A stretch of 64,000 nt of DNA from Tubiluchus corallicola (lineage: Eukaryota; Animalia; Priapulida), in assembly GCA_030141605.1 (NCBI GenBank), contig JAQGDQ010000662.1:1-64000 (forward strand), written 5' to 3'. The notes under the pieces were generated by a model. That model was given only the letters and a program-made list of their open reading frames with translations. It searched no databases and was not told the origin of the DNA. This document shows, in pieces, positions 22,401 through 63,793 of the stretch (its first letter is position 1; every line of letters starts with the position of its first letter). Both the position numbers and the translations under genes were made by a program.

Positions 22401-25400
22401 TTTGGCTCAAATTAGTTTGTTATATTTTGTTATAATTTTTCTTACAGATATAAGCTTCAACAGTCCTGGAGTAACGCCCTTGAAATTGAATAATTACCAA
22501 AAGTAAAATATACTGGAATATCTGTGATTGTTTCTGTGTTTGTTTACAATACGACGGCAATACGATATGTTTAACTAACTGTCAATTTCCCCAAGAAATG
22601 AAAATGAGAGTGTTTGCAATGTGATTGCTAGGATAAGTTTTGTTCACTACACATTATGCTGATCATTTGTAGTAATCAACTCTATGCATATTGGTATCCA
22701 ATTCACATGCACCTAAGCTGAATAGAATGGAATGGCTCTCCTTGAATCTTTAAAATTTTAGTCTGTATAATTAATTTCGGAGGTTTCTGGATATATATAT
22801 ATATATATATATAAAATTCGAGGCAACAGCTACCAGGACGGCACCATTTTCTGCGATCTATATATCAAACAAAAAGTCTCGATCTAGTGTCGCCTCATTA
22901 AGGGTTTATTTTTTTAATCAGGCCCACCGGGCGAAATCCTCCAAAAATGGCCATTTTTCCGCTGTTTTTTGCAAAAATTTAACCTGTTATTCTGGAGAAC
23001 GGGAATGGACCGGAGGTGGTGCCGGTAATAGTTATTTAGCCCGTTTAACGGCTGGTGTAGTAGGCATATTTAGTGTTCATAGGAGGGCCACGGTATCCTG
23101 TAACGGACGTTTTCCCGGTCCCAATTCCCGATTTTTCCGAAATTTTGGCCTAACAGCCTGCAGAAAAACATTCTAACGATGGTTTGGAAGATTCTCGAAA
23201 GGAGATACATAGCTCTTTAGAAAGAGAAGGAACAGGGCTACACAATGATGTGGGTTACATTTTGGGATTCGCCCACCAAAAGGAGCTGCGACGAGTTGAT
23301 TGGAGGTTCCATTTTCGGCAATTCTTGTTTGGAAAACTGCTGACGTGTTGCATTGTTCTGACGTCATTCCATTATACTCTGCCTGTAATTTTGCTTCAGT
23401 AAAAGTTGCTGCTGACTTTGTGTTATAAATAAGGACTAGGTAGATGTTTGCATATTATTGATTATAAATGTATTTATATGCAAAATTTTTTGCGGGGCAT
23501 TAGCTAGTCTAACATTATTTTTTGTGCAATGTACAGCTGATGCCATAGCCTTTACTGCAAATAAATCTTACTACAAGTTTTCTTTCATTTCAAAAGTTGA
23601 CATTTCATTTTGCAGTTCAGTATTGTTTTAATTCTGAATTAGACAAAAAACCATTTTTTTAATGTTTAGGGCTCTTGAGGTGTTAAAGTGGCCCTGAGCT
23701 TCTATTCTGAAGCTTCTTCTATGTGTTCTTTTACAGCTGTAGTGAGTCATTAGCAGTGAAAGAAAACAGGAAGACACACTTTACTAGATAATAAAAGAGG
23801 AAGAATATTACTCACTTTCCGCCAGACATGTGTCGCAGTTCTTTCCGGATGTTGGCGAACGTCGGCCGCACATCCGGTTTTTCGTCCCAGCATAACTTGA
23901 TCAGTGAGATGATTCGAGGGCCCATGTCGGTGGAGTCGCTCAGCGTCGGCCGGAAGGGATTGGCCTCCCCATTCCGGACTCGATTGATGGCGTCTAAAAT
24001 GCACGAAAAAAGATGATGCTTCTTATTGTGTAATGCATTTTCTATACACGTTATGGCAACCATGACAGTAAATTATTTGTAATATATCCTATCAAAAAGT
24101 TGAAAAAATAAACACACAAAGAGAGAAATACAGTCTACGCGTTAGACTGACACGTTTTCCTCTGAGCAAAACAGAGATCTCAACTGACTGTTTTAAAATA
24201 TGCTAAAAATAAAAACATTATGCTATTACAAAAAATCAAACTATGTCAGGTAGAGTGTGATGCAAATGACAGTATGTGCTAGCCTTAATCTGTGTTGGTT
24301 TCTGTTACAATATTTTGATCTGTTATATTTTTGACATTGTGTGATGGTGTAATGTTTTTAATTGTATTATATTTTGAAACAGCCAGTCAAGTCACTGTTT
24401 TGATGTGTGTGAAAATTTGGCCATAAACCATCTACAAGTTTTGAATCTTTGTTGTGTGTTTTTACTTTTTAAATATATAGTGAAGTACTACAGATCAGCA
24501 CTTGAAGGCGTTATATCTCAAAAATTATGAAGTATAATTTGTGTGCTTGCGAAGCAAAAACATCCGCAAATCGACAATTAAGCTTTTTATCTGCATATCC
24601 TGAATCTCTATTTCATGAGGATCATTTTGATACCAAGTTTATCGCTCCATGTTATTTGTAAGCTGAGATAATCCATGTTGAAATTGAAGTGCAGGCTACG
24701 CACTGAAAAACGTATTCTTGAGAAAATTGCTGTTAAAGTCAGCCATTGTTTTTTGTCGTAACAAAACATAGCAACCGTATGAAAGTGTGGCTGCTCTGGA
24801 GTTTGCAAGAAAACATTGAAGTTACGTTTAAATCCTGTACCACATGAAGTTCTGGGTATGGCAATGGAAAAACCGCAAACAAAATTATTCCTTCCGTGAG
24901 CTGCCATCGGAGTTTGAAAATACAATTTCTGACAAGAACTCAATACTAGCTTTTAGGCAGAGAATTGGGTAAGGAGTCATAAAATCAAATTTTCAGTATT
25001 TTCTGAAGTATTTAGATTTAGTAGTATTTACAATCAACGTTGGTTTTTGCAAAAAAAAAATTGATACTTGACCAAATTTTCGATGCATTTTACTTTGAAG
25101 CAGCATAACGTAGTTTTAACTATGTCGACTTTTGGACGGTTTTGGTTTGCAAGCATGCAACTATCTTACACTACAAAAAAATCGCTTGACATTTTCCTAA
25201 TGCCTAGATGATAGCATTCTTCTCTTTTGATATCGTGTTTTTAAAATGTCTTCTTGTTAGTTAAGCAGCAACATTGGTTAAATTAGAAAAGAAACCTTAT
25301 ATGTAATTTACTTCAGAAAGAGAAAAGAACTCCAGTGACCTCCGGCTAAAACTATCAAGAACTAGTCTCGTAGAACTTGATAGTTCTAAATACCTCTAGA

Positions 25401-28400
25401 ACCATCTAGAACTATCAAGAACTATCAAGAACTAAAGTCTCACATCTGCTAGTTTCTTTAGGTTCAGAACCCTTACTCAATTTCCTTTGAGAACACTAAG
25501 TGCTGATAAAGTGTTAATTGCGTTGCTTTTTTCCAAGATTTGTGAAATGTAAATAACTCCAAAGCTTTTTGTACTAAAACTATTTGAAAATCTACTTTGG
25601 TGTCAGCACGTTCTTAAAATTATCATTTTAACCAGGAATCTTCAAAAATGGGTCACCATATTAGCACACGGCTTAAGACGAGACCCTCTTAAATCACTAA
25701 AACAGCAAAAATGGCAATCTTTTACCTCTAGGTGTAACACTGTCAAAGTTATACGGGGGACACCGATAGACCAGCTCATAAGCAACGACGGCAAAACTGA
25801 AGACGTCTCCTTTCTGGGTGCCTTTCGGGGGTGGAAAGTTCTCTCGGAGAATCTCCGGCGCGGTCCATTGCTTGTATGTGAAGATCCGGTTAGTCAAGTA
25901 TTCATTGATGTTGTCCGCCTTGCGGTGATACTTCCCTGTCTTCTGTTGACTTACTATTAAAAATAATATAATATTCATGCCTTCATAATGAAGTTTCAGA
26001 ACTAAATAATTAAACTGCTTCATCGTTTTGCTTTAGCCACTTTTTACAGCGTCTCGTCTTTTTAGAATACGCCACAATATTGTGTTCTAAATTTTTTGAC
26101 AAAATAGATTCTACAGCCACTTGTGGTTTACCAGGCCGTCACGACTATCCAAAATCTTCAAACTATAAAAAATGGCGAATCACAAGAGTTGAAAAATTCA
26201 TGGCCATTGTTCTGGAACACAACCTGCTATGACCTTAGTCTGGCGCAGCAAAACATATCGTGTACATCTGAGATGAGGCGGTTTAGACTGCTGTTATACA
26301 GCCTAGTTTTCACGAGGGTTTCACACCTTCAAACAGCCGTGCTTTCACAATCCAGTACAAATCTTTCAAAGTTCTTAAACCTTAGTGTTATTAAACTTTA
26401 AGCTACAATGTTATTTTATCGTGAACTTGTTTTTATCAACTGTGGGCACCTCATTTCATAAGAGCTATTTGGTTTCTCCTCTTTAAGCGACAGAGATGAC
26501 ATCTTGTTCACTACGCATGAATTCGTTATGTGAATTTACGAAAGCAAGGTTGCCCAACACATTATCCCTTTCTTACTTGTTAATGTTCTCTTTATTATTT
26601 CTCTTTTGAATAAACAAATTTATAACATGAAGCAATTAGTGAAAACATTTGTGTCCACAACAAATACAATAGTACCGAATTTATGTAATTCTAATGAGAC
26701 GAATTTAGTGGAAAATTTATAAAATCGTAGTCAAAACTTCATTAAATCTCTTTTGGTCGGTGGTCTGGTATTTTTGCTCTGCAAAAATTGTCGCTAAAGT
26801 TATTACTTTGAACAACTAACAAGTTATACTGTGTGTGTAAATTTTAATAAACCACGACTTTTTGGCTGAAAGAAAAAAGAGCAAAACAAGCTTCCCCCTT
26901 GATCTGCAGACCTGTGATCTCCCATGTTATTAAGCTACGATTGTATTTCTTATTTTAGCAACTACAAAAATCATGGGCTCAAGGGAAATCACCTGTTGCC
27001 CACAGTTCAAAAGGGAGACTTGCACTTGTGAAAAAAGTATCTCAGTACTTTGAAATTCTTCATTCTCTTGAGCGCCCTCTTTCCTGTTTTGTCCAGACAG
27101 CACGCTCGGCAGGCCGTAATCCGTTACTTTAAGTACCCATCGATGATCGATCAAACAGTTTGTTGACTGGAAGAAAAATCAATTTCTTTGCAATGACTCT
27201 AACAATAATAACTGCATTATAAGGAGGAGAAGTTAGAGAGTGGTCGTGAAGTGCACGCTTAGTGACCACAGTTAAAGAACACCTAGCCTATACAGTAAAT
27301 GGATGGGTGACCTCCTAGAAAACTACTTCTACATGATTTCTCCTGTCAGGTTAACAAGTTTTCTAGCGATGACTATATCGCTTTTGTCCGTTTCCATCTT
27401 AGGCTTAGTCGACTACCCCTGATAATGGGCAAACTTTTGGCCCAAACACAATTGATTTACGCACTGTGTTGAGTGCCGGACCGAGCGCTGAACTTTATAA
27501 AAAAAACATTATAGCCAAAATTGTACAACTATTGCTCACACATTGTCGGCTTTTAGATAAAGGTATAGCTATTTAAATTTAAATGAGAAAAGACAATTTT
27601 TAAGTGTCTCAAAAAACTTTCCATACAAAGCTATGTTACTTTTGCATTTAGCTTACCTGCTTGAAAGACTTGTGCTAGAAGAGAATTAAGAATTCAAAAT
27701 TTTCGCATCAGCTGGTAACATGTGACCGTTGCACTATCTCAGTGCGCATCAAAAAGCGTCATTGGTTCATAGAAAAACATACAGTACTTTGTCTGTAGTT
27801 TTGCCTAAGCTCCCGCTTGCTATTGTGACGTGCTTACTGTACACTACCTGCATCCTTGGCATAACAGCAACATCTAACTGATTAAACTTACTGGCAAAGA
27901 CAGCCAGAGCTTCAAAAGCAATGGCTAAGCAAGTGATTAAATGTTTAACTTCCAGGAATTCTTGGGTAAGGAGGTTAATTGCAGTAGACGGGCAGGTCGA
28001 AGCAAACCGTTAGGCTAGCATATTAGCACGTGATAAATGTTCCTGCTTACAAACAAAATGGTACTTAACATGATTGTTTCTATGTATGTTATAGGAAAAA
28101 AACAAACTAAAATGATATAAAAGTCATAAAACCTTATTAGTCACAGGAAAGTGTCTTACTGAAACATGTCAGGCAAAAACATTGAGTCAATTATGCAGAG
28201 TTATTTGAGTCTATTACCATTACATTTGAATAGAAGCGGCCCGTTCCAGGCGTTTTTTAGTCAATTAAGCGATTGAGTCTATTAACCGTGAGTCTATTAA
28301 GCGGCGCCTACTGTATTATTAATCTTACCGACAAGAAAAAGTAATTAAAGCTTTTGCATGGTCTCATTATATTTCAAACTTTTCGTAACATTACCTAATC

Positions 28401-31400
28401 TTGTTTCAAATGACTTACCATTAATATGGCTGCACCTAACGGTCATCGCAGGAGTTTAAATTTACAAGTTTTATATACCATTACTACTAGCCCAAGGCCT
28501 GTATGCAATAAGACAGCACATCAGTGATATAAAATTCCAAGACAAATTTTTAAACTTTCATTCATGAAGACTGTCTTCCTGTGGTCAGTGGTCAGTAGCA
28601 ACAGTAAGCATCAATGTAATAAAAACATACTGATTCCTACCTTAAGGTTGCCATGGGAACCAATTCCATGGATTTTTGTAATGGCCTCCATACCGCACGC
28701 CAGATCCATGAGCAGGCTATACTTGAACACCGGAGTTAACGTTATACCTTCATTCTCAATCACATCCTTCAAGTCACAAAGTTTAACGGCATTAATTTTA
28801 CTAAAACAGACTCAAGTTTCAGACCATAACTCAAACTGATCTACAACCTAAAATATTGAAAACACAATGCTAAGAATAACTTACATTAAAGAATTACTAC
28901 TTTGCATGTTTAACTTTGCTAGTTTTCCACCGTTGCACAGTCTTAGCCACACATGCTTAGATGGGCAACTATGCCTACATTTCAAATACAAAAAATATGC
29001 AACATACGGGGGTTGACATCAGTAAAAAATGACTAACTACACAATCCCAGTCATTCCATCATCATAGCCTCGTCAAATCACAAGCTAGCTTAGTAAAAAA
29101 TTTAAATATGAAATTCTGAGCTTGAATTTTTTTCCACTTTGTCTGTATCACTGTCAGTATCATTCATCAACACTGTATTCCAGTCTTTGTTTTGCTTCCA
29201 AAGATTTCTGCCATTTCTAATTTTTATCTGCAGTGACATTATGACCATTTCATCAATGGAATTTAATATTCACAGTCAGACCTTCATAGTTTAACACTAG
29301 CATCACTCACTTACCACAAGACTGCCCTTCTTACAATATTCCCAAACGAGACAGATGTTTGGAGGGTCGATGACGGCTCCGATGAACACATTAAGATTTT
29401 CGTGCATCACCTCTTTCACCTAAACAATAGAACAGCCATGTGTTTAGTTTGTTGGATTTACTATATCTGTTCACTATATTTTGTTAACTATTTACTTGTT
29501 TACTATAATCCAAATTTACTTTGCTGGATTTCGTTTTCTATAGAGGCTAGTGGGGTGTTACAGAAGCACACAATCCAAATTTACTTTGTACAAAAAATCA
29601 CAAAAAAAATTTTTTTATTTTAGCACATTAGGAAAATTGGATTTTTGGTCTTATTTTATGATATCCATAATCTTATGCAGCCTGGTCATAAGCAACGAAT
29701 CAGTATAACAGAATGAACTGATGAATTGTAATTTAGAAAACAGCTGAAATCCAGTAGATGGCTCTTGCAAAGGACGAGCTGGGCTTGAAAATAGAAAAAA
29801 CGGCAAAAATGATTGCTTCCCAGAACAACTAATTGAGTTTGAAAATACAAGATTTTCACGATAACTGCAAGACCAGTTTTTAGGCAGGGTAGCATGTAAC
29901 TAGTTTAACATTAAATTTTCACTATTTTTTGAACATTTTAAAGACGACTTGATGGTAGAATATAAAAGTGTAATATATTTAGTGTTTGTTTTTATAAAAA
30001 ACAAATAATAGATATTTGAGAGAATTTTTGATGCATTTTACTTTGAAGTATCACAACGTAGTCTTAACTATGCTGAATTATGAATGATTTTATATACATA
30101 AACTTTATACATAAATTTTATATACATAACTTTATATATACATATAAATATAACTCTGTATATAAATATATGTATGTATATTTAAATCTTATTTTGTATG
30201 CCTCGCTCAAGGTAAAGCCCTCGTATTTTCCTCATTTGTCTTGTGGGCGTAACTACACTTCTGAGACCCTGCAACTTGTGGGGGGGGGGGCAAGATTGCG
30301 TAATTACCAAAGATCTTACCGAAACTGAAATTTAAGAAACACGGGAAACCGATATCGAAACAAAAGCGAACCGAAATTATTTTTGCAAAACCGACTACTA
30401 TCACAACTTAAAAAAATTCTGATATAAATAAAACACTTCGTTTTTGCTTGTTTGCTTATATTTGCTCTGATGCAAGTTTATAGAAGTAGTTAGGCAAAAA
30501 ACTTAATCAAAAAAGTAAAACAATGTTTACGGTTAAAGAACATGGAGTTTAAAAAAAACTGACAAATTTCATTTTCTAAATATTTTGTTGTCTATATTTC
30601 ATAAACTATAAAATTAAATTTGGTTTTATTCAAATTAGGTTTTGATATTTCGATTGATTGAGTCTGGAGACTTTAAAGCTTTACAGTCATCAGCACTGAA
30701 GATATACCGCATTGCAGTAAAATGCATGCTACAAATGGTACAAAAACTACGAAACTTAATTTTCGATAAAAACAAAACTCACCGGAAAGTATGAAATTTT
30801 CATTTCAGTAACATCCCTGGAAGCTATGCCACTGGACAGACACAATAAACAACTTTTTCTCTAGTGATCAAAGGCAAACAAACATCAAAAAATTATAAAA
30901 AATAAATACCGTATTGAATTCCGTCAGCACGTTCTTCGTCAAAGTTATGTGCTGTTTATTCACATATTTTATCGCCACCATCTTTTCGTTAAAGTAACCG
31001 ACGTTTGTAAAAATCTGTTGTCCTCGAAGGTCGCCCAAGCCGCTCTTTCCGCCCGTGTAGCTTGAGTAACCACTAGAGGACGCTTTGCCAATTGACGGCT
31101 CTGACACAGCGCCTTCTTTTAAAGATCGGGAACCAGTAGAAATACTACCCTGTCAAATCACAACAGGAGATGTTGAAAGTGGCACGTGGTGAAATAAAAG
31201 TTAATGCTTGTAAGCGTTAAAGTCCAAAAACGTGAGATAAAAACTATATCCAAAAATTAATTTTTAATTTATTCATCAAAATTAATAGACTTGTTTACTA
31301 CATACAATTACAGTACAATAAAAGAGCAAGTATCAGTTAAGTCAGTTTTTTTACATTAACCACATATCAACAGTGGTAACTAGCGGAGTAAACTATAGTC

Positions 31401-34400
31401 CTAATCGATGTTTGTATCATTAAATAAAAATACGCTGTGTGAAGGAGTAGTGCTGTGTAAGCGCATTTACAAATTAACGAAAATTCGAAAAAATCGAAAT
31501 ATGAAATTTGAAAATAAAATTTGAACTTTCAACACTCTAATGAAAAACTACAATTACTCAACAAGAGGTAATTTCAATTTTTCAAAGTTCTTGTCTTGTA
31601 AAGGGTTAACGTACTTGACTTCCCGATCCAGTAGACGATGCAGCCGTTGACTTCTGTACCTTCCTTATGTCATCCCAGGAGAGACGCCACGCCATGAGCA
31701 ACATGCTCGCCTCTTTTTTTGAACGCCTGTAAAAGTTTTGCATAAAAGATGCGAGAACAAAACAGCAACGCAACGTTAAACAGCTGCATTTCCAGACAAT
31801 CCGCCAGTGCCAGGGTTTGGGTTCATGACAGTCTTACCAAGCTGTATATTGATGTTGAATACAAGCAATTCTGAATACACCAAATCAGAACTATACTGAT
31901 TGCGGAATTAGAAAATTGTAGGAAAAACAGCAGAACTGCACTTTCACACACGTTACTAACAGAAGCAAAATTCAGAGCAATAAGCCTTTTCACAGTTCCA
32001 GCAATTGATGGTGATCGTGAAAAGGTCAATGGTCAAACGTACCAAACAACGCATTTGTGTACAATTGCAATGCCTCGGAGCCCATGCTATTCTACTACTA
32101 ACAGTTTCAACAATTAGCTAGAACCTTACCTATTTCATTTTTTCTTGTTCCCAAGTAACATCTGCTAGTAAATCATTCTTACCTACAGACTAATGCATAA
32201 TTAAGTAAAGTCTACGTAAAACAACTGTAGTTACTGAACTGATGCACCAGAGGCTTTGCTTTACCCACACGTCACGTGATGGTTGTTGCTAGGACACGTT
32301 GCTGTGGTACACTTAATCTTTGACTTACAGCAAGTGCGCATGCGTACAACTAAACTATGAAAAGGCTTATTATTTTAATGTGACATTACTCTGCAACTAT
32401 CAATAAACTCATATAGACATGAATTTTAAATGTACAGGTTGAACTTTGGTGTACAAATAAGGCTACTTTCCACTGCATTTAATAATGGGTGCATAAAACC
32501 TTCAATGAAAATGAAAACTACATCACTATTACAGCAGTGGTGCTGCCACGCAATGTTTCAGAATAATTATATAATCATATTGTTTTATAGTCTGTCTTGT
32601 TAATCTGTCTGTGGCCTCAATGTTGCCTGAGAAATCTGCTCACAAATCACATGGCAATTACAAAAAAGTTAACTCTTTCAAGTTCCAAGTTTTTAGAAGT
32701 AAAATGAAGTTACTCAAGTGTACATTACGCTTCACCAGAATGAACTTTATTTCTATTTATTTCTTATTGTTTTTAATGTACGAGAAAAAAGGCAGGAGAG
32801 CTAGACTGGTGAATATTATCTCAAAGTTGCCGACCCGAATATGATTCGTGAAGTCGTTTGTGTTAAAGCATCTGTATAATTTGAAAGTCAAGAAATTTAT
32901 ATTGTAGATAGCTGGGGGAGGGTCCTTGAAGATAGTGTGGCGAACGGTGACATCAGTGAAACGGTCAAGGACAATGGACATTGGTCAATTTTTCGACTGT
33001 TATTCAACTTTACACAAGGTTTTAGGTTGAATTCAATTTTTTTCATAAGTATCGAGGAACTGTAGGGTAAATGTGTACCTGGGCCTTTAAAGAGGTGGAA
33101 TTCTTTAAAGGCCCAAAGAACCGAAATGAATAACAATGAACAACTCTAAAACTATGGTAACTAGACTCATGAAAGTTACAAGACCCTTGGGGCAGGGGTT
33201 CCGGCCACCGTATGGTTAGAAAACTTGGAACTCATTCAGGGTAGCAGGCAATATGTAAAAATCAGGGTATTGACATTTAATTCATGTTAGCTTGCAAATG
33301 TAGAAGGCTGGAGTCATGAAAATTAGTAGATACCTTGGCCTCAAAAAATAGTAGGGTGGACAGTGACCTCAATCGAAGGGCCAAGGTCGTTAGATATCAG
33401 TCAGTTTTTTGGCTGTCGTTGAACTACTCCCAAATCTTTGAGTTCAGTTAATTTTTTTTGGTAAGTATTAGGTACAGTGGATTAATAATCTACAACAAGC
33501 TCAACCAGGTACAGTCAGGTGTAAACACGGTAACAGCGTTATGATTGCGGATACAGATCTGATTTCGTACAGTCCTGCTGTTTAAGTACATAGTTTAGTA
33601 CAAGTAAAAATAAAAAAAAACCTGTACATAAGGACTCCAAATATCACGCATCCAGCAACGAACAAACTTGAAGCTACAGTAGCAATGATAATGATGAGTG
33701 TATCTAAAAACAAAAAATGACTGATCATTGTTCGGCAAATACCTTGATAAGACAATTAACAGGTATAATTCCCAAAAAAGTATTCCTCCAAGTTCAAGTT
33801 CCGATTAGCTTTATCTGCTATTCGGTTTCGCAAGGAAGCATACAGAGTGTCAGGAAATGATAGACCTCGCTATACTAAAAAGTATCACAGGTAGATTGAA
33901 AATATATTTTTTAATATTTTAATCGTAATATTTCTTACTTAAAAAATACATACCAAAAGTTTAACATGTTTTTAGAAAACAAGTACTGATGCTTATATGT
34001 TTTCAAAAAACACATACCGAAGCTTAATATGTTAAAAAAACACGTAGTTTAATGTGTTTTTAAAAAACACATACCAAAGTTTAATGTGTTTCAAAAAAAC
34101 ACAGATGGAAGTTTAATGTGTTTTTAAAAAACACGTACCAAAGTTTAATGTGTATTTAAAAAAACATGTACCAAAGTTTAATGTGTTTTTAAAAAACATG
34201 TACTGGAGTTTAATGTGTTTTCAAGAGACATGTACCGAAATTTACTATGTCTTAAAAATCACGTACCGAAGTTTAATGTGTTTTTAAAAAAACACGTACC
34301 GAAGTTTAATGTGTTTTTAAAAAACATGTACTGAAGTTTAATGTGCTTTTAAAAAACACGTACCAAAGTTTAATGTGTTTTGAAAAAACATGTACTGAAG

Positions 34401-37400: not shown

Positions 37401-38063
37401 CAGAAGAGTAATTGAGAACTAAGTGTGATTAAGCGACATCATACAACAATGTTTTGGGACATTAATGCACTTAGGAGCGTCAAAATTCTGGCACAACTAG
37501 CCAAAATAAGAAAGAGTTAACACCTCGTTTGAAAAACAGAATGAAGAAAACAATGTCTTTTACACGTTGCTTTGTACTTGCCTTAATGCTTAAAACAAAG
37601 CCACATCATTTCAAAACAAAAACCAATAAAAAATTGATATCGAGCACCTACCCGTGTTCCATCCTCCAAATTTACCACCTCCGCAAACTTCTGAAAGACT
37701 CCATCCTGATCCATGTCAGTGATCCAATAATCGGGTTCTCGATCACCCGCCTGATCCATTAGAAGATTTCCGCTCATTCCTAATTAAAGGAGCAACGAGA
37801 AACACGTCTTAACATGATGCACATCATCAATAAGTTCAATTTCTCGCCTAAATAAACGCGCAGCGGTAAAAAACTAAAAGAAAAATCAATAAGGGTAAAT
37901 GACAATGTTTATTCAACAATGCTTTGCGTATCTATCACCTTCCTAGTAAAACAATGTGATCGCATCTTAATGGATGTTCAAATTGTGTGCTTCTGTTTAA
38001 ATGTTTCTACGCACCCCACATACATGTTAAACATCCAACTTTGTAATTTAATGTTTCTATTCA

Positions 38064-41100: not shown

Positions 41101-44100
41101 AAAGGAGAAAAAAGTAATTTAAACTTTGTCTCTGAAAACTTTCTCACAAAATTATACTACTTAGCATTATGCTTACTTATTTAAAACACTTAGTCTATGA
41201 TTAAAAGAGAAAATTCTCAATATATCAAAATGTTCATGACAACTCGGTAAAACGGCACGGCAAGCGATAAAAAATGACTGGACGAATTTTTAAGATTTTT
41301 CACTAAGAGTGTTTTCTTGTCCTTTAAGTGAAAGAAAAAACAGATTGCTTAAGCTTTTAATGACGTGCACCATTGACACCACAACAGAAATGCTCGATAT
41401 AAAATGTAGAAGAAATAAAAGCGAATATACATTTAATTAAAAGCTTAATACAAACAACATTTTAAAGCACAAGAAAACCTTTTACTTACACAAAGCTAGA
41501 AAAATTTGCCTAAAAAATCACCTACACACTGCCTTATTGTGCACAGAGCTTGTATTAGTAGTAATGCTGTATAAAACTTGTAAATCTAAACTCCCGCGAT
41601 GACCGTTAGGCACAGCCATATTAACAGTAAGTCGTTTGAAACATGTTTAGCTAACATTGCACAAAGTTCGAAAAAAATAATCAGACATACCATAGTATAC
41701 CATTACTTTAAATGATTACAAATTTTCTTTTTTGATTACATAAATCTTTTAAGCAGGTAAACGTAATGCTAAATAATATAATTTCCTACAGAAAGTTTAA
41801 TGCAATATACTTTCTTTCCCTTTAAATATCTTTCATTGTGTAGCAGTTGCTCACATTGTGTGTTAATCTTTTAAAACAATTCAACCCACTAGGCTCCCCA
41901 ATGGAAGGAGTGATCCACCATCCAGCTTGTTCACTGTAGGATACTGTGGCAAAATCGGCAGCTAATTTATTATAACGGAAAGTTCTCTAGAATGGTACAC
42001 TAATCAGCAAAAGTTGTGAATTGGGATTTAGTTGCAAACCCATAACAACCAGAACGAATCTTTTGTTTAATTACATTATATTCGTAGTGTTAAGATGATT
42101 TACACACACATGACTAATCAAATTTTGACACCAAACCAGAAAGACAGGAAAAATGAAAAAGTGACAAGGACATAGCATGGATTTGAACCAGGGCCTTTCT
42201 GATCACATTTGCAGAACACCTTAGATCACCAAGCCACAACGGAAATGCTGAATCTGGTTGGGCAATTATAAGGGAAGAACTTTGGATTGCCTTGGTTACT
42301 GGAGAGTACGATGACTTAGTGGATTCTCTCGTTTGTTGACCACACATGTAGTTTGTGAGAACTTGCGTAAACCACCGAAAAAGTTTGATATTAATAGAGC
42401 AAAATGCGCCACATACCTTTAACAAACACCCCGCGCATGTTCTTGGCGACCTGAAGACCATCACGAGCATTTTGGTTCCCCGACAGTGTACTGTTGAGCG
42501 CGTGAGCGTACAACAACACGGCGTCATGAAGGAAAGCGGCGTATCTGTCTCCCTGGTAAAAAATCCACAAGCAAACGTATCTAATTTTCAATGAATACTT
42601 GAGTTTATAAAAAGTAAATCGTGCGTAATACCTTTAAAAAACATCCCACGCATGTTCTTTGCCACTTCTAGGCCATCACGTGGGTTTGAAGTCTTCAACA
42701 TGGTATAGTTGAGCGCGTGTGCGTACAAGAACACAGAGTCGTGCAGGAACGCAGAATAGCGGTCACCCTGGCAAAAAATTCACAAGCAAAAACAGTAGAC
42801 CTAACGAAATGCATAACGCTAGCATTGTGGCATAGATTGTACCTTTAAAGAAAATTCCTCGCATGTTTTTTGCTACATCGAGACCATCACGTGGATCTCG
42901 GCTCTGAGACATAGTATAATTGAGTGCCAGAGAGTACAGGAACACAGCGTCATGTAGAAAAGCTGCATACCTGTCACCCTACGTAAAAAATGCACAAGCG
43001 TTCCTGTAGTCAACAAGTATCTATGCTTAACGATGCAAATGCCAACGTGATGAGTACATTATATCACAAACTAAAACTGTGTTTAACATTGTAGTTGAGC
43101 AAGTCAAACACAAGGAAAATTGAGTTAGCTGACCAAGGTCAAGACTAAATAAGACATGTAAATAACTGGGGTTTTCACTGGGAAGTATCTCCAATTATGC
43201 AGCTGAAAAAACATTCGCTAATCCACCACAAATACTTTAATAATTTAGCAAATAACGGTAGACGGTCTTGCCCAAATGCCTAGAACTATTGCGCAAATGT
43301 CAAAATCAAAAGTGCTAGAAAAAAATTAAGTTATATGACCATCTGCTTGTAGCCAAAAGGTGCCTTCCCTTAGAACAAAAATGAATAAATTAGAAATGAA
43401 AAACACAAAAAAATGAAAATTTGAAAGAAAATGAAAAAACAAAAGTTGCGCGAACTTGACAGGATAACTAACTGTTCAGAAACAAGCTCAAGCATAAACA
43501 AAATAATTTTAAGAGTGAAGGCATAAAAAAATAAAACTGTCATAAAATGAAGTGCTTGGCACATACAAAGTACTTAACTACCAGTAACCAATAGTTTGTA
43601 CCTGTGTACAAATAAAGCGTACGTTCATCCGTACTAATATTAATACATACAGTTACACCTATACGAAGACAAAACACAAAGTGAGAATGGAGATTAAATA
43701 AACTCTCATAACAATTTCGCTATGCACTTTATCATGATCCAAGAAACTTTAATTTTTTTAAAACCTGAAACTGCACAACTATGTTAAACGAGTGCGCAGC
43801 GCTCCAAACATTACTATTTTATACTGAGTTCATTTAAACATACGGCAACCGATATGAATCAATTTAATTTTATATTGTTGCAATATTTTTGAATATTACG
43901 CAGCTGCCCTTCAATACTATAGCTCAGCAAGAAATTCCAGGCCTACAAGCTATGCAGAGGGGGTCTAAATTAACTATACTTGCCACTTACATAAATATTC
44001 AGCAGATCGAGTCCCAAGCCTTTAGGTATATACTGCTTCCACGGCGGCTTTCTCATTCTGTTAGCAACATCAATTCTGAATGCATCAACCTCGGGTCCAG

Positions 44101-47100
44101 TTAGCGCAGCCAAGCCCACCTGCAAATGTACAAGATGGCAATAAATTCGTCCTAGAAGTTTAACGTTTGACTTTTCGGAAGAAATACATGCACAGATGTA
44201 AAATTAAATTAATCAAATGTCCAGTAGGTAGCAGCAGAAAAGCACGTGCTTAGATGTTAAATTAAATGAACTAAATGTCCAGGAGATGGCAGCATAAAAA
44301 CACGTGCTTAGATGTTAAATTAAATGAATTAAATGTCCAGCAGATAGCAGCACAAAAGCATGTGCTTAGATATTAAATTAAATGAAGTAAATGTCCAGTA
44401 GATAGCAGCACAAAAGCATGTGCTTAGATGTTAAATTAAATGAACTAAATGTCCAGCAGATGGCAGCATAAAAACACGTGCTTAGATGTTAAATTAAATG
44501 TCCAGCAGATAGCAGCACAAAAGCATGAGCTTAGATATTAAATTAAATGAACCAAATGTCCAGTAGATAGCAGCACAAAAGCATGTGCTTAGATGATAAA
44601 TTAAATGAACTAAATGTCCAGCAGATGGCAGCATAAAAACGCGTGCTTAGATGTTAAATTAAATGAATTAAATGTCCAGCAGATAGCAGCACAAAAGCAT
44701 ATGCTTAGATATTAAATTAAATGAACTAAATGTCCAGTAGATAGCAGCACAAAAGCATGTGATGAAACCCCCAACAGTGTAAAAAATTCACTGGCCAGAT
44801 GTAAATTAAATAAGATCTTGTGCACGTACATGAAATACGCTTTCAAAGGCTTGCTTGGCTTCTTGGTTACGTTGGTCATTCGAATACCAGGTCTCCGTTG
44901 CATCTACTACATCGTCGTCAGGTAGGATATCCATTGTGTAGAACACATAGTCCCCGTTCGTCATGCCCAGATCATACGCTCGAATCATGAAGTTACGACG
45001 ATCCTTTGCAGGAGCTACTAGCATAACAACTGAAAATACACATCGACAATATTGCAAGCACATATAAATGCACAACTGTAAACACATATATGCAGCATAG
45101 CAAACACACATAAACTCACAACTGAAAACATATGTACACAACATAACAAGCACATACAAACTCGCAACTGAAAACTAACGTACACAAACATAGCAAACAT
45201 ATATAAATTCACAACTAAAAACATATGCACATAACATAGCAAGCATGTATAAACTCACAAGAGCTTACTCAAATAAGCTATTAATAGGACAAGAGAAATA
45301 AACTGCACATTAGTTATTTCAGTACCTCAATGCACTATACTGAAATGCACATTTGCTAGTGTTGAGACCGATTAAAGAATAACAATCAATTTGGGTTTAA
45401 CTCCTGATCTCAGATATTTTTTCAGCTGCTGATGCATGGATTGTATTAATACTATTTTAACTTATTTAAAAAAAAAACAGAAAATTCCACCACAAATGAA
45501 AATCACACAAAATATCACTATCTTTATGCAGTAACTTAATACATCGGCATCTCTGCTTAGACGCAAAGGTTTCTCATAGCACGAATGTGTGCTTTTAATC
45601 CATGCCTGCCTCTTTGTAAAATATATTCAATTAGATTTTCCTTATGATCATCGACATAATTATCGAATCGGTTTCATATCCAACTGATTATGAAGATCCA
45701 TCTGATTTTCCACCATTAATAATTACAGCAAAAAGAAATCATTTACAAACCTGACCTAATGAAGAGGCCCTAACTAGTACAAACAATCTACATTTCTGAC
45801 CAATCTAGCCATTTTACCCTTTCTGTTTTATGTTTCTTGCGCTAAACTACAAGTAAAAGAAAAACTTCTGCAATTAATGACTGCCTGGAATGAATTACTT
45901 CTGGTTTCTTTCTTAATTTCAGTGAGCATTTTCTTCATCTTGCGATCCGTAGGGTTATCCTCGTATTTGAGATGAGACGTAACGGTGATGTTCCTCTCGT
46001 TAAATGCATAAGCAACAGCTTTTGCAGCATCTCCCCACAACAACCTGAGAAACAGTAAAACAAAGGTTTGTACTTAGAATACTATTATTCACTTAAAAAA
46101 GACAATTACCGAAGATAAGCTCAATGGGCCCCTAAATTCCAATAAGAATTTATAGTGGCATCTGTGATATGAAATTTAAAATGGATCAGGAATGTTACAG
46201 TGAAACAATACAAATTTAAATATGGTACTTTTCTTCCAAGGACAGACGACGTGATATGAAAATCAATAACCTGCAAATGCAATACTCATTAAAAGACATT
46301 TCATTTGTTGTTAGAAGTTTTAGGTTGCAATACTATGCAGATGGGTACACAATTTTGAAATTTGTTGCTAAATTATGCTACAATTACAGTAATTGTACGT
46401 CTATGCTATACTATAGCCTGCATCTAAGTAAAGTGAAGAGAATAAGTTTGTATTTTGCAATTTGACTTGACAAATACTAACAGAACTCAGAACAATCCTG
46501 AACGTAGCATGGTTTTATTGCTCTCTGCTAAATATTCTCGTAGATTTCCAGACTCACGCACATCATGCTCAAGCATGACCGCTTGTACGTCACTACGTGT
46601 TGCACTTGTAATTGTCTATACCAACCGGTATTTCATGGTTGCTACAGACAAGCGATTTTTCGTGGTCAACTTCTGGTTAATTGCCATATAGAATAGTAAC
46701 GCCAGAAAGCTACTGAAGCCTCAATTTTATACTATGAATCTTTAAAATTTAATAGACTTTTTACAAAGCACGCAGCAATAACGCTCTTGAAAAGAAGCAG
46801 CCATTGGGAAAATGAGTAATCTTTGGATTACAAACAATGAAGTGTCTCTTGCAGTTTATTTTTTACGACTCATACATTGTGAAAGTGGGCTTTTAATTGG
46901 TGCATTTTTATTGCCTATATCTAGAACAGTGTTGAATTCTGTTCTGCTGAACAAACCGGAATTAAAGAGTAATGCACAACTAAAGCGAATTCAATTAATT
47001 TGCAACACGGTGTAGTTGATATACTATGAAACAAAAATATGTATTTAATTTGAGTATTATAAAAAGTTTAAGCATAACCGTATTACATTCTCTTGTATCA

Positions 47101-49672
47101 CTAATGATGAACTATCTATAGTGATTTTTTTCTTTTGACAGTACATACTAGTGTGCATTATAATTATACGTCTGGTATAATTATTGTTTTCTTTCAATTT
47201 TTACATACGTAGATGTCAACAATAATATTCCAAACTAATATTATGGTCGCATCGTTACAGTGTTACCAGCTGTTAAATAAAAAAATCAGAGCAAAACAAC
47301 TAGTGAGTTCAGGCAAGGTGTATCTTCTGTCATATGCTCCCACAGCAGCAGATACGATATAGTGTATGTTGTCAATAGATTCAAATAGGCAGACACATAG
47401 ACATCGCGATGCATGAAAAAAGAATCAAAAGCAATGGATAATAACAGAATTTCCACTGGTAGATGTGACCAAAGCACACAAAAGGCAAAACAACAGCAAA
47501 TTTGCGATATGCATGGATATCCACAGACTATGTTATATATTACACCGTTTTTATTTGTGAAAATCTTTCACAAACTAGAGCAAACATCGCGATAATTTAA
47601 AAAAAAGGAACAGTAGGCTGAAAAGGGACAAATCCTGATCGAAAAACAAGTCTAGTAAGCCTGCAAGTTAATCCACTTGGGACTAAATTAAGACATGTCA
47701 TTTAATCACAAGGACGTGGACGTGGCGCTACACTAAGAATTTATGTTAGAATAATACTTAAGCATACTAGCGTAACTGGTTCAAACTCAGCCAGATAACT
47801 GGTCTAAACTCAGTCCCCAATCCTGACTCCTTCGTGCTTACTTAGTTTTATAGAAAAGTAATGCGTTTCAGAAATTTCGTAAAATCTAAATTAACAACGT
47901 AATTGTGTCCTACAAGCGTGTACTATTTTCCATTAAAATAATTCTATTAGTATGTTTACCAGTTTGAAGAAATAATTCCAATACGTTTCCATCCGTAGTA
48001 ATCAAATATGTTGATTAAGAAAGCACCCAGCTTGTCAAAAGAGCCGAGCGTGCGACCCATAGTAGGATAGACAGCTTTGTCATTGAATTCTACATCAGTG
48101 GTAACCCACGTGATGAGAGGAAGATTCCAGAATGCAGCCAGTTGTCCAACTACTCTTGCAGCTAGCCACAAAACAATTAAGATAATATTGGTAACAATAA
48201 TATAATTTTCATTGTAAACAATATTAATTTTTATGAAATAAAGTAAGCAACACAATTTACAAAATTTGATGAAGTAAAAAGATGGACTTCATCATCAGGT
48301 TCATTGTGACCTGTACATCATCTACTTTTAATGGCTTACGCTTAAGCACGTTTGCTTGCAAGAAAAGTTGTTTTAGATCAGATTATCGCTCGAAAACCAA
48401 AATTAAAAAATATCATTTTTTCACAGTTAAAAGATACAGGTTTGTTCTAATAAAACCGTGATAAACTTCTTTGTAACGCGATTGTTTTTTAAAAAGTTAC
48501 AATTGCTTACAATTGTGGTTGTCATTATTGTCATTGTTACTGTCACTGGTATTTTTATTGTCGCAATCATTATCATTGTTGTTAGTCACTTTCTTGTTAC
48601 ATATTTAGAAGAGGTAACGATATTTTGTATGAATTCATGATTACCATCAGAACAGGCAGGTCCAAAGAAAACATCAATGCGTTCATTGATGTACATTTCA
48701 GCTGCATTGCCAGATGCTAGTTTACTATCACAGCTGGTATCTCTGGTTATAACCCTGAAATATTGAATCAGCAACTAAACAAAGGCTAAATTAAAACAAG
48801 GAGTGGCAATTAATTGACTCTATGGCTGACCGACCAACTGACTGACTAACTGACTGTCGACTGACTGACTATTCCTACACGGTTAAAACCCAGAAATGTT
48901 GAGTTAGTGGCAAAATATAAAAATAAATATAACTGATTAAAAACAATGAGTAACGATCAGTAGACTTTCTGCTGACTCGTTGATTGATTTACTAATTGGC
49001 CAGTGAAGAACTCATGACTGACTGACTGGCTGATTGAACGACTGTCCACCCATCGAACAACCTGCCAAGCTTCTGACTGACTGATTAATTGAAAACGTGA
49101 ACATAATTAATGAATGAGTAACTATGTGAATGTATGTAAAATAAACAAGTAAAATTAAAAAATGGAAAAGAATAAAGAAATAGCTGAACTAATGAATGAA
49201 TGATCGAATAACTGAAAAAAACAATGGATGGATGAATGAGTAACTTCATCTTTCTCTTGTCAGTCATTCGTCTGCTTTTACATTTGCTCGTTGGATTCAT
49301 TTGCTCATTTTTTCTCAAATTGATTCATTCGTTTATTTAGTTATTTCATTAAATCTTATATTCAGTCATTCATTAAGAAACTTACTTTAATCGAAAAGGA
49401 AAACCAGGATTGGCATGAACTTTCTCAATAGCTATAGACACAGCACTGGCACTGGTCACTCCACTAAAATACTCAAAATTAGCCACCCAGGGAATAAGTA
49501 GCCCAATAAGGAATTGCGGTAAACCAGATCCGTCTTCATCCAACTTTCTTACTTCTGACTTGAACGTGCCACTAGAATTTGTGAAAGTGTTGCTATTGGC
49601 TGACGTCTGTTTCAGCCCCAACACTAGTACTACCAACACCAGGAGAGCCTTCGTCTTCATTGGCTGCGACAT
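7361..49672 (-). CDS. Receptor-type (transmembrane) guanylyl cyclase, natriuretic peptide receptor-like; whole spliced CDS span, 25 coding exons using one of three alternative exon 7 copies, ~1177 aa
   Basis: Exons translated by hand join in phase via GT-AG introns (summed length 3534 nt including stop). Motifs: signal peptide, [44 protein letters not shown] helix, [59 protein letters not shown]. Confidence 0.93.
9319..9558. mobile_element. MITE (Harbinger/PIF-like ends)
   Basis: TIRs GGTGTGTTCACACTAGCAAGT / ACTTGCTAGTGTGAACATGCC. Confidence 0.7.
10286..10356 (-). CDS. rGC coding exon 24
   Basis: [23 protein letters not shown]; GTAAGT donor, phase 0 to 2. Confidence 0.9.
10585..10945. mobile_element. 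MITE family A copy
   Basis: Terminal inverted repeats TAAGCCTTTTCACAG...CTGTGAAAAGGCTTA; internal sequence shared with four other copies. Confidence 0.85.
11055..11996. mobile_element. Non-autonomous Tc1/pogo(Tigger)-like element
   Basis: TIRs CAGTAGGCGCCGCTT / AAGCAGCGCCTACTG-TA; the right half recurs at ~27830-28313. Confidence 0.7.
12395..12698. repeat. Degenerate (CAT/CAC/CGT)n trinucleotide tract
   Basis: Low-complexity triplets immediately after the exon 23 donor. Confidence 0.8.
12703..12797 (-). CDS. rGC coding exon 23
   Basis: [31 protein letters not shown]; phase 1 to 0. Confidence 0.9.
12896..13270. mobile_element. Partial copy of the 15759-16486 element
   Basis: Near-identical TTGCTGCATTTTGCATGGGTTCATGAAAAACT...TTGTGTGCAATCGGCTAATGCAGAAAATTTCAACTATC. 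Confidence 0.75.
13652..13762 (-). CDS. rGC coding exon 22 (degenerate catalytic motif)
   Basis: [37 protein letters not shown]; TAG acceptor, GTATGT donor. Confidence 0.93.
14525..14687 (-). CDS. rGC coding exon 21
   Basis: [34 protein letters not shown]...LQLHIG. Confidence 0.94.
14825..15240. repeat. 21-22-bp minisatellite
   Basis: Unit CATACAAGCCTTTCTTAGTT(C/G)C. Confidence 0.9.
15646..15714 (-). CDS. rGC coding exon 20
   Basis: [23 protein letters not shown]; 69 nt, phase 0 to 0. Confidence 0.93.
15759..16486. mobile_element. Non-autonomous piggyBac-like element (TTAA-flanked)
   Basis: TTAA-CTCCATCAGGACTGTA...TGCAGTCCTGAAAGAG-TTAA; a related copy lies at ~12896-13270. Confidence 0.65.
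17833..17956 (-). CDS. rGC coding exon 19 (cyclase, first metal-binding Asp)
   Basis: [41 protein letters not shown]. Confidence 0.93.
18279..19251. mobile_element. MITE family A copy interrupted by another repeat
   Basis: Left end TAAGCCTTTTTCACAG at 18279, right end TGTGAAAAGGCTTA at 19251; ~700 nt of other repeat sequence between. Confidence 0.65.
19680..19817 (-). CDS. rGC coding exon 18 (hinge coiled coil)
   Basis: [46 protein letters not shown]; phase 2 to 2. Confidence 0.92.
21480..21934. mobile_element. TTAA-flanked inverted-repeat element (Kolobok-like ends)
   Basis: TTAAAGTACAAGAAAA...TTTTCTTGTCCTTTAA with imperfect subterminal IRs; the same end motif occurs at 18626, 41312 and 62662. 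Confidence 0.5.
23816..23993 (-). CDS. rGC coding exon 17
   Basis: [16 protein letters not shown]...[30 protein letters not shown]; GTGAGT donor. Confidence 0.92.
25726..25953 (-). CDS. rGC coding exon 16 (5' boundary less certain)
   Basis: [12 protein letters not shown]...[35 protein letters not shown]...VTPR; best phase-1 acceptor is TTATTTTTAATAG at 25954-25955. Confidence 0.8.
27049..27166 (-). CDS. rGC coding exon 15
   Basis: [39 protein letters not shown]; phase 0 to 1. Confidence 0.88.
27830..28313. mobile_element. Partial second copy of the 11055-11996 element
   Basis: Shared AAGTGATTAAATGTTTA, ACAAAATGGTACTTAACAT and the terminal TTAAGCGGCGCCTACTG-TA. Confidence 0.7.
28641..28766 (-). 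CDS. rGC coding exon 14
   Basis: [42 protein letters not shown]; AAG acceptor, phase 0 to 0. Confidence 0.88.
29315..29419 (-). CDS. rGC coding exon 13
   Basis: [35 protein letters not shown]; GTAAGT donor. Confidence 0.92.
30910..31149 (-). CDS. rGC coding exon 12 (Ser-rich region, kinase-homology domain start)
   Basis: [10 protein letters not shown]...[23 protein letters not shown]...TEFNT; 240 nt, phase 0 to 0. Confidence 0.9.
31615..31726 (-). CDS. rGC coding exon 11
   Basis: [37 protein letters not shown] (W-x-x-x-W-x-D-I motif of rGCs); phase 2 to 0. Confidence 0.88.
31981..32369. mobile_element. MITE family A copy
   Basis: TAAGCCTTTTCACAG...CTATGAAAAGGCTTA. Confidence 0.85.
33622..33703 (-). 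CDS. rGC coding exon 10 (transmembrane helix)
   Basis: [28 protein letters not shown]; phase 1 to 2. Confidence 0.85.
33945..34465. repeat. ~31-bp minisatellite with internal palindrome
   Basis: Unit AAGTTTAATGTGTTTTTAAAAAACACGTACC. Confidence 0.9.
34630..34900 (-). pseudogene. Decayed Tc1/mariner transposase C-terminal fragment
   Basis: Across frameshifts the minus strand reads DL(N)PMDCCTW...[10 protein letters not shown]...[13 protein letters not shown], resembling the Tc1 SPDLNP-D-W and GG-H-E termini. Confidence 0.5.
34922..35409. repeat. Recent 246-bp direct tandem duplication
   Basis: TGTTTTGCTGCCATATATTG...TAGTCTAAATTTC at 34922 and 35168, almost identical. Confidence 0.9.
35491..35605 (-). 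CDS. rGC coding exon 9 (juxtamembrane Cys pair)
   Basis: [38 protein letters not shown]; phase 0 to 1. Confidence 0.9.
35853..36239. mobile_element. MITE family A copy
   Basis: TAAGCCTTTTCACAC...CTGTGAAAAGGCTT. Confidence 0.85.
37097..37392. mobile_element. MITE family A copy (opposite orientation to the 35853 copy)
   Basis: TAAGCCTTTTCACAC...CTGTGAAAAGGCTTA; internal deletion. Confidence 0.85.
37652..37779 (-). CDS. rGC coding exon 8
   Basis: [43 protein letters not shown]; phase 1 to 0. Confidence 0.9.
38068..38145. repeat. (CT)n microsatellite
   Basis: Pure CT run. Confidence 0.97.
38822..38862 (-). ncRNA. Degenerate minimal hammerhead ribozyme motif (Penelope repeat, left copy)
   Basis: Minus strand CCA-CTGATAA-T-GACAG-cagtagct-CTGTC-GAAA-TGTTTGAC. 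Confidence 0.55.
40221..40262 (+). ncRNA. Degenerate minimal hammerhead ribozyme motif (Penelope repeat, right copy)
   Basis: TCA-CTGATGA-T-GACAG-cagtagct-CTGTC-AAAA-CGTTTGA. Confidence 0.55.
42174..42237 (-). repeat. tRNA-derived SINE head or tRNA pseudogene
   Basis: A-box-like TGGCTTGGTGA and B-box GGTTCAAATCC at tRNA-like spacing; no clean cloverleaf. Confidence 0.4.
42417..42552 (-). CDS. rGC alternative exon 7c (mutually exclusive)
   Basis: [46 protein letters not shown]; 136 nt, CAG acceptor, AAAG|GTATGT donor. Confidence 0.88.
42632..42767 (-). CDS. rGC alternative exon 7b (mutually exclusive)
   Basis: [46 protein letters not shown]; 136 nt, CAG acceptor, AAAG|GTAT donor; absent from the ORF track. 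Confidence 0.88.
42843..42978 (-). CDS. rGC alternative exon 7a (mutually exclusive)
   Basis: [46 protein letters not shown]; 136 nt, TAG acceptor, AAAG|GTAC donor. Confidence 0.88.
43991..44119 (-). CDS. rGC coding exon 6
   Basis: [43 protein letters not shown]; CAG acceptor, GTAAGT donor, 129 nt, phase 0 to 0. Confidence 0.85.
44195..44810. repeat. 58-bp minisatellite, ~10 copies, filling most of the exon 5-6 intron
   Basis: Unit GATGTTAAATTAAATGAACTAAATGTCCAGTAGATAGCAGCACAAAAGCATGTGCTTA. Confidence 0.92.
44830..45029 (-). CDS. rGC coding exon 5
   Basis: [31 protein letters not shown]...[10 protein letters not shown]; phase 1 to 0. Confidence 0.9.
45026..45260. repeat. ~46-bp degenerate tandem repeat overlapping the exon 5 acceptor
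   Basis: CAACTG(A/T)AAA...CATATAAA(C/T)TCA recurs about five times. Confidence 0.75.
45899..46044 (-). CDS. rGC coding exon 4
   Basis: [20 protein letters not shown]...LTEIKKETR; phase 2 to 1. Confidence 0.88.
47960..48161 (-). CDS. rGC coding exon 3
   Basis: [19 protein letters not shown]...[14 protein letters not shown]; phase 1 to 2. Confidence 0.9.
48645..48754 (-). CDS. rGC coding exon 2
   Basis: [36 protein letters not shown]; CAG acceptor, G|GTAA donor, phase 2 to 1. Confidence 0.9.
49386..49672 (-). CDS. rGC coding exon 1 (signal peptide + ectodomain start)
   Basis: [20 protein letters not shown]...[21 protein letters not shown]; donor AA|GTAAG. A polypyrimidine-AG acceptor at 49688-49689 implies an upstream non-coding exon. 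Confidence 0.85.
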
Positions 49673-57310: not shown

Positions 57311-57663
57311 CTTTTGCTGATTGTCACGATGCGATTACTAAAAGGATAAACAAATTACATGACATTGATTCCAGTGAGGCACAGTATGCATTGAGGCAGT
57401 CAGCAAACTGGTCAGCTAAAGCATAACAGTCTTTGCTGATTGGGTGGATCTTGTACACAGTACAATACGTAGACGTGTATTACTTAACAAATGTCTCGAA
57501 CTAAAAAGAAACAAAGTAATCTTGTATGTTTGGACTAAAAATGGCCAGATTTTCATCAGGAAAACTGAATCATCTGAACCCTTCCCTGTAAACAATTTTG
57601 ATGATGTAGATAAATTAAAACACTAATCCCTTCTTCACTCGTTTGAATCAATTTCTCATTGTA

Positions 57664-63564: not shown

Positions 63565-63793
63565 ATGTCGTCTAACGCGTCTAAGGAGACCCTCCAGGAC
63601 GACGTCTTGGTCGTCGATTCGGGCTCGTTCTGGGAACCTGGTCAGTATCGTCGGACAGTAAGACGAGTGGACGACGGCTACTCTATGTGCAAAGAATTGG
63701 TGAACATGATTAGAGATAGGTGTGAGATTGAGGCAAAGTATGCTCAGGCCCTCAAGAAGCATGCAGAGGACTGGCATAAGAAGATAGAACATA
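63565..63793 (+). CDS. PACSIN: PACSIN/syndapin (F-BAR protein), first coding exon; gene continues beyond the window
   Basis: MSSNASKETLQDDVLVVDSGSFWEPGQYRRTVRRVDDGYSMCKELVNMIRDRCEIEAKYAQAL matches the PACSIN SFWE-G-Y-RTV-R-DDG-LC motif; GTAAGT donor at 63794. Confidence 0.88.

Follow-up and report, generated by a model that had tools for sequence, protein, structure and literature searches.

Can a single receptor gene make several ectodomains by swapping one exon for another? This question is raised by a 64,000-nt stretch of the genome of the priapulid Tubiluchus corallicola (GenBank assembly GCA_030141605.1, contig JAQGDQ010000662.1, positions 1 to 64,000; hereafter the window), in which exon 7 of a receptor gene is present in three tandem copies, 7A, 7B and 7C, on the reverse strand. 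Judged from its sequence, the host gene is an NPR-like receptor guanylyl cyclase, with an ANF_receptor ectodomain, one transmembrane helix, a kinase-homology domain and a cyclase domain encoded in a single gene. We propose, with a probability of about 0.65, that the three exon-7 copies are old, under purifying selection and spliced in a mutually exclusive way, so that the gene makes three isoforms whose differences lie mainly in a loop at the end of a helix, predicted to sit at the apex of the N-terminal lobe of the ectodomain. One gene would thus likely yield three ectodomains by exon swapping, and its relatives seem to do likewise with neighbouring exons.

The cassette has the anatomy of tandem mutually exclusive exons: the copies are adjacent and homologous, have like length and the same phase, and keep intact splice sites (Table 1). 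Each copy has an AG acceptor, an AAAG/GT donor and a single open frame; the splice-site scores fall inside the range of the gene's remaining exons, and 7C has the best match to the donor consensus among the three. The whole cassette is compact (560 nt), and tblastn detected no fourth exon-7 copy within the window. The remaining measured introns of the host gene (465–4637 nt) are far longer than the two that separate the copies (75 and 79 nt), and no further duplicated exon was apparent in this gene when the window was compared with itself and searched by tblastn with homologous proteins.

The reading frame sets a strict rule on how these exons can be used. Exon 6 ends in phase 0 and exon 8 requires phase 1. 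When exons 1–6 and 8–12 were joined in silico, three of the eight inclusion patterns stayed open through exon 12, all of them single-copy, while zero, two or three copies led to a stop at codon 359, 404 or 412, and retention of either short intron to a stop at codon 417 or 429. In-frame omission or combination of the copies is impossible, and all of them encode one structural region. These results agree in every feature with an earlier note on this DNA, which had described three 136-nt exons with these acceptors, donors and introns and had stated that the frame survives with a single copy alone. As a separate observation, retention of the A-B intron (42763-42978, reverse strand) would append a 25-residue hydrophobic tail followed by a stop, formally a truncated anchored ectodomain; the tail is probably due to chance, as T-rich introns read as hydrophobic.

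The divergence between the copies is structured by codon position. The peptides share 34, 32 and 32 of 45 residues in the three pairwise comparisons, matching the identities of 32–34 and the third-position differences noted before, and all three copies are identical at 31/45 first, 39/45 second and 16/45 third codon positions. Base divergence reaches 26–28%, mostly at third positions, a pattern that misassembly cannot produce. The probability that misassembly or a chance repeat accounts for the triplication is therefore negligible, the more so as a 653-nt contig from a DNA run (X1) spans 42326-42958, covering C, B and most of A, with one mismatch and no gap. What can be said for an artefact is that the stretch is contained in a single DNA run, and that X1 may be the source sample of the assembly itself.

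Pairwise NG86 estimates among the copies gave a synonymous divergence (dS) of 1.35–1.92 and a nonsynonymous divergence (dN) of 0.15–0.19. Under a one-ratio codon model, omega (dN/dS) of the three copies was 0.10 and neutrality was rejected (p 3e-12). When branch lengths were left free, A and B each came out below 1 (p 0.0006 and 0.011). A model with a synonymous clock placed all three copies at an omega of 0.05–0.18, with p below 1e-4 in each of three rootings, and 7C itself at 0.15–0.18. In a tree of 45 exon-7 peptides, the copies of the window formed one lineage-specific group (supports 99/91; the alignment is short and the bootstrap unsettled).

Two results speak against constraint on the third copy. 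In the free-branch model an omega of 1 was not rejected for 7C (p 0.49), because its synonymous branch collapses, and its private changes comprise nine nonsynonymous and five synonymous ones (p 0.21), which makes 7C the weakest link of the cassette. The claim that each copy is under purifying selection therefore stands for A and B on free branches, and for C only under the synonymous clock; likewise, the overall dN/dS of about 0.10 does not extend to C alone on a free branch. One explanation of this pattern is that the cassette was once functional and that only one or two copies are spliced now, with C (or another copy) recently silenced and still undecayed. Relatives do lose such duplicates, since the first copy is broken in three of the 16 loci with at least two exon-8 hits and a remnant of exon 7 survives in another locus (see below). 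However, C has an open frame, the best donor match, the upstream 7-mer shared by all copies and the strongest predicted pairing, and under the clock its omega is clearly below 1, so that we regard recent silencing as quite unlikely. From frame logic and codon models we infer that at least two copies are very probably used in a mutually exclusive manner, and that such use of all three is probable. The mutually exclusive cassette proposed in the earlier note is thus well supported by these two lines of evidence, its splicing being read from the sequence. No sequence from a presumed RNA run (X2) aligned to exons 6 to 7C at 85% or 80% identity, a result that speaks neither for nor against splicing.

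Where would the isoforms differ? Exon 7 aligns without gaps to residues 321–365 of NPR1, such that exon position n corresponds to NPR1 residue n+313, in agreement with the proposed match to a helix of the natriuretic peptide receptor NPR-A. Of the 16 variable residues, seven lie consecutively at positions 23-29 (permutation p 0.007), a run equivalent to NPR1 336–342, so the reported clustering of differences in one loop was reproduced. Within this run, 7A, 7B and 7C all lack a glycine that 26 of 28 homologues retain and that NPR1 has at 339. The N-x-T sequon pointed out earlier is indeed present in all three copies, though it is a feature of the family, with N in 23/28 homologues and T or S two residues later in 28/28. 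An AlphaFold model of a Saccoglossus homologue (P0156) is poor (mean predicted local distance difference test, pLDDT, of 49); at this low confidence it has a helix-loop-helix at 310–344, places the variable run at the helix end and in the loop preceding the next helix, and finds its best ectodomain fold matches in NPR1 and NPR-C.

The corresponding surface of NPR1 is bound by the antibody REGN5381, described as an allosteric agonist that binds the N-terminal domain at its top, over 25 Å from atrial natriuretic peptide (ANP), and activates the receptor without ligand (PMC11410649). The 12 NPR1 residue contacts listed in Supplementary Table 5 of that paper include L336, A337, G339, T341 and T343; the variable run contains four of these 12 (L336, A337, G339 and T341), and T343 lies adjacent to it. 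Since the loop aligns to the NPR1 apex, over 25 Å from ANP, a partner or allosteric surface is likelier than a natriuretic-type pocket. By sequence alignment and the low-confidence model, the swapped loop is predicted to lie exposed at the apex of the N-terminal lobe, with allosteric leverage and away from that pocket. Swapping it might alter an extracellular partner, an allosteric modulator or tissue-specific tuning, leaving the core peptide pocket unaffected. Of the suggestion that the isoforms differ in ligand or partner, the part concerning a partner or allosteric surface is thus favoured and the part concerning a natriuretic-type ligand pocket is not.

Several observations count against a functional role of the loop. 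For codons 23-29, picked after inspection, omega is 0.45 as compared to 0.056 elsewhere, meaning faster change with no sign of positive selection, and relaxed constraint accounts for this value as well as diversification does. When the variable columns were compared with the rest among homologues, their excess variability was not significant (p 0.18), most loop columns varying there too, and columns 23-25, 27 and 29 have entropies of 2.0–3.0 bits. It could therefore be that the three copies are used exclusively and encode equivalent proteins, the loop differences being drift and the copies persisting through use in different cells or stages or through tuning by unproductive splicing. Such equivalence would fit an omega below 1, the diversity of the same columns among homologues, the distance of the loop from the ANP pocket in NPR1, and the statement of Hatje et al. 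that mutually exclusive exons modulate function and do not greatly alter it (PMC5740500). Yet the differences are packed into one run that coincides with the epitope of an allosteric agonist, and ectodomain exon duplications recur within the clade, and we hold equivalence to be unlikely. Whether the isoforms differ functionally at the loop is, in our judgement, evenly balanced.

The ligand of the invertebrate NPR-like clade may be bound elsewhere than at the ANP site. If it sits near the exon-7 helix or the lobe cleft, the isoforms might differ directly in specificity for a small ligand or peptide. Chang and colleagues are said to have found in 2009 that a receptor isoform of the fly Bactrocera, BdmGC-1B, carries an ectodomain insertion of 46 residues and has lower affinity, which would be a precedent for such an effect in an eclosion-hormone receptor. 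In addition, the ligands of non-vertebrate NPR-like receptors are described as mostly unknown and their pockets as remodelled (PMC6878697). Against this, the copies barely differ in the N-terminal part of exon 7, which the geometry of the fold would place nearest the hinge, and the variable run aligns to the apex. A direct difference in ligand specificity is accordingly improbable, and a partner or allosteric surface at the apical loop is the interpretation that we carry forward.

How might the exclusion of the other copies be achieved? Joining of A to B and of B to C would be blocked sterically by the tight 75- and 79-nt introns, and any joined product, A plus C included, would meet an early stop and be removed by nonsense-mediated decay. 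A steric limit of 50 nt between donor and branch point has been given (PMC5740500), and the candidate branch-point pentamers of the B-C intron lie 16, 23 and 39 nt from the donor, below this limit, with positions guessed from the pentamer. Copy A would be the default choice. A docking site in intron 6 might pair with an element before B or C and loop out the upstream copies, as in exon 6 of Dscam. Across 38 kb of the transcribed strand, the motif GCTTGTG turns up four times, and three of these occurrences start 20–21 nt before 7A, 7B and 7C. The element before C, at 42582-42564, pairs with 43353-43336 at a predicted -20.8 kcal/mol, an energy matched in none of 400 shuffles, while for 10 other acceptors put through the same pairing test the energy was reached in 72–391 of 400 shuffles.

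Several observations weigh against this mechanism. No branch-point pentamer was found before copy B in the A-B intron, branch points being guessed from yTnAy. The pairing of B, whose element lies at 42797-42779, with 43353-43336 is not significant alone (197/400 shuffles), A pairs better with another site at 43665-43647, the three-way pairing statistic was reached in 10/636 shuffles, and the pairing energy of C was matched by one of 37 natural gene tiles. In a 1-kb partition function the helix between the docking site and C has a pair probability of only 0.08. Moreover, the docking test was selected post hoc, after the hit had been seen, and a broader four-way docking scan was not clearly above its 10 shuffles per test. 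A scan for docking sites in the downstream intron, or for selectors 3' of the copies, was likewise not clearly above 10 shuffles. That a docking step sets the exon choice is thus a tentative and rather doubtful proposal. The compact cassette would be well suited to minigene tests of steric, decay-based and docking-based exclusion together.

We then asked whether related receptors carry similar duplications. A profile of the three copies against cluster-representative proteins gave 191 matches at E-values up to 0.001; the best 150 of these were listed and are mostly short open reading frames from genomic contigs. No annotated isoform set of the host gene was present among these best 150 of 191 matches, and a word-index protein search with copy B returned no candidate. 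The top match (P0001) is an open reading frame running through two exon-7 homologues, at residues 1-52 and 67-118, with a spacer of about 44 nt as estimated from the protein, and is likely a two-copy cassette in another animal. Shared ancestry of this pair and the copies of the window is neither shown nor rejected, since the tree gives no support for it and the approximately unbiased test does not reject it (p-AU 0.38).

A further 80 related loci come from animal DNA in metagenome contigs; they are redundant, represent few host groups and do not count species. Where compared, they are mostly nearer to annelid than to hemichordate proteins. Their exon 7 has the same donor as in the window, and one paralogue group shares the 136-nt boundaries. 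Two intact copies of exon 7 occur in none of the 80 loci, of which about 21 reach from exon 6 to exon 8, and no orthologous locus bearing the triplication turned up in this set. In one locus (L050), a decayed exon 7 that lacks a GT donor lies at about 1330-1475, about 155 nt upstream of the intact exon.

Neighbouring exons are doubled in the same set. Sixteen of the 44 loci with exon 8 have at least two hits, comprising 11 intact pairs, one pair cut by the contig end, three with a broken first copy and one internal repeat. The intact pairs are in L012, L019 (6575-6702 and 7179-7306), L025, L036, L056-L059, L072, L078 and L080, which are partly redundant. The annelid-like doubled exon 8 is 128 nt long and has intact GT donors, unusual AAG acceptors and conserved upstream sequence specific to each copy. 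Exons 8a and 8b form separate groups (100/100; 34 rows, one broken a-row having entered out of frame), with dN/dS of 0.20 and 0.14 (nine pairs, after dropping two near-duplicates and a broken pair). Among 17 loci in which exon 9, a juxtamembrane exon, was hit, four have it doubled (L002, L009 at 2988-3105 and 3452-3569, L018 and L021); these belong to a second paralogue group, in which the exon is 115 or 118 nt long. Like exon 7, the doubled exons 8 and 9 have lengths not divisible by three. Shared 9-mers that could serve in docking were not found above 4/9 loci in the annelid-like exon-8 introns. Decay of duplicates in relatives, with exon 8a broken in L047, L053 and L076 and the exon-7 remnant in L050, tells against lasting use of every copy. 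Independent, recurring exon duplication with occasional loss across the receptor clade is the simplest reading of these patterns.

A different feature of these loci is that exon 7 is interrupted within the variable loop in 23 of the 80, for example at 1256-1492 in L041, 696-1337 in L060 and 548-963 in L075. In nine loci examined, the insert measures 72-504 nt and lies between direct repeats of about 12 nt, which include an AG but lack a GT donor. A young non-canonical intron would fit this pattern, as would an insertion with target duplication.

Mutually exclusive exons are a familiar device, of which FGFR2 IIIb/IIIc is an example, whereas receptor guanylyl cyclases usually diversify by gene duplication; several hemichordate receptor paralogues are among the protein matches listed. 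The device used here belongs to a known, textbook class, and its use in the receptor guanylyl cyclase family is new within the searches made. The earlier note knew of no such cassette in a receptor guanylyl cyclase ectodomain, and none was reported in the literature searched either, including the main texts of PMC5740500 and PMC9741552, although an insect case could be missed. NPR1-3 and GUCY2 gave no hits in the supplements of PMC5740500 and PMC8373072. The lengths of human tandem mutually exclusive clusters are not divisible by three in 60% of cases, and the donor lies under 50 nt from the branch point in 9% of human exclusive clusters, as stated in PMC5740500. The cassette of the window resembles these clusters in equal length and phase, encoding of the same structural region, a length not divisible by three and short introns. 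It differs from them in having three copies, in lying in a receptor guanylyl cyclase, and in being known from its anatomy.

Two further systems can be compared. In Dscam1 exon 6, a docking site pairs with selector sequences (Graveley 2005, as presented in PMC6071210 and PMC11802352). The candidate arrangement of the window is alike in that the intron following the upstream flanking exon would hold the docking site, which complements a conserved element just ahead of the variable exons. However, Dscam1 exon 6 has 48 copies and the window three, and the window's pairing, strong in the case of C alone, overlaps the branch-point zone and is weak in the global fold. NPR1/GC-A (PDB 1dp4, 8tg9 and 9bcl) has the same order of ANF_receptor, transmembrane, kinase-homology and cyclase parts; it differs in that no exclusive cassette was found reported for NPR1, while the nearest named relatives of the window's gene are uncharacterised. 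BdmGC-1/BdmGC-1B, the eclosion-hormone receptor of Bactrocera dorsalis, is named in PMC12393706 and PMC6878697. In both cases splicing would diversify the ectodomain of an invertebrate receptor guanylyl cyclase, though the Bactrocera variant is reportedly an insertion isoform and not an exon substitution.

The three isoforms would be a natural experiment, asking whether the allosteric surface of NPR1-type receptors has a native partner and offering a handle on an orphan receptor clade. A bolder synthesis, unlikely as a whole, is that swappable ectodomain exons have arisen in this clade time and again, each time independently (exon 7 tripled here and doubled elsewhere, exons 8 and 9 doubled elsewhere). 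The exon-7 swap would then rewrite the loop recognised by the agonist antibody in human NPR1, this loop being a natural site for an allosteric ligand or co-receptor in receptor guanylyl cyclases, and a Dscam-like docking helix would choose the exon, perhaps also bringing a shared CTAAT branch point near 43390 to copies without their own.

The host gene extends from 49672 down to at least 13617. Its exon 3 matches PF01094 (E 5e-12), and its intracellular part matches PF07714 (E 7e-5) and PF00211 (E 7e-11). The exon boundaries past exon 12 were placed by tblastn only and are not base-exact. The closest named proteins among the matches listed come from Priapulus, Saccoglossus, Glandiceps, Capitella and Paralvinella and are NPR-like receptors yet to be characterised; in comparisons with the window, the scores of priapulid (Priapulus), hemichordate and annelid proteins are about level. 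The Saccoglossus homologue modelled above (P0156) matches full-length NPR1 with an E-value of 2.5e-207.

Table 1. Features of the host gene and its exon-7 cassette, in the order of transcription
Feature	Position	Strand	Remarks
Exon 1	49386..49672	-	Start codon; N-terminal hydrophobic stretch taken as signal peptide; first strand and helix of the ectodomain
Exons 2-5	48754-48645, 48161-47960, 46044-45899, 45029-44830	-	ANF_receptor ectodomain
Exon 6	43991..44119	-	129 nt; upstream flank of the cassette
Weaker candidate pairing site for the A element	43647..43665	-	-19.8 kcal/mol; reached by 10/400 shuffles
Candidate docking site	43336..43353	-	In intron 6; a 16-bp helix with the C element is predicted; of the sites in that intron, the one that pairs best with the B element; prediction only
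Exon 7A	42843..42978	-	136 nt; GCTTGTG begins at 42999, 21 nt 5' of the exon
Intron A-B	42768..42842	-	75 nt; no yTnAy branch-point pentamer found
Exon 7B	42632..42767	-	136 nt; GCTTGTG begins at 42787, 20 nt 5' of the exon
Intron B-C	42553..42631	-	79 nt; candidate branch points 16, 23 and 39 nt past the B donor
Exon 7C	42417..42552	-	136 nt; GCTTGTG begins at 42572, 20 nt 5' of the exon
Exon 8	37652..37779	-	Downstream flank of the cassette
Exon 9	35605-35491	-	Juxtamembrane cysteines
Exon 10	33703-33622	-	Hydrophobic transmembrane segment
Intracellular exons	13617..31726	-	Kinase-homology domain, coiled coil, guanylyl cyclase domain

The window holds several other features. Within the cyclase region of the host gene, an intronic block of about 330 nt is duplicated (12863-13189 and 15720-16046). 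Two long open reading frames of 462 and 673 aa in overlapping frames lie at 57619-60983 on the reverse strand, with a related fragment at 52391-52999 on the forward strand; these frames resemble a non-long-terminal-repeat retrotransposon, with apparent motifs of a PHD finger, an endonuclease and a reverse transcriptase. An exon with an FCH/F-BAR match (PF00611, E 3e-12) at 63535-63834 on the forward strand marks the start of a neighbouring gene. Minisatellites with periods of 33, 50 and 58 nt are located at 1242-1770, 3625-4769 and 44194-44761.

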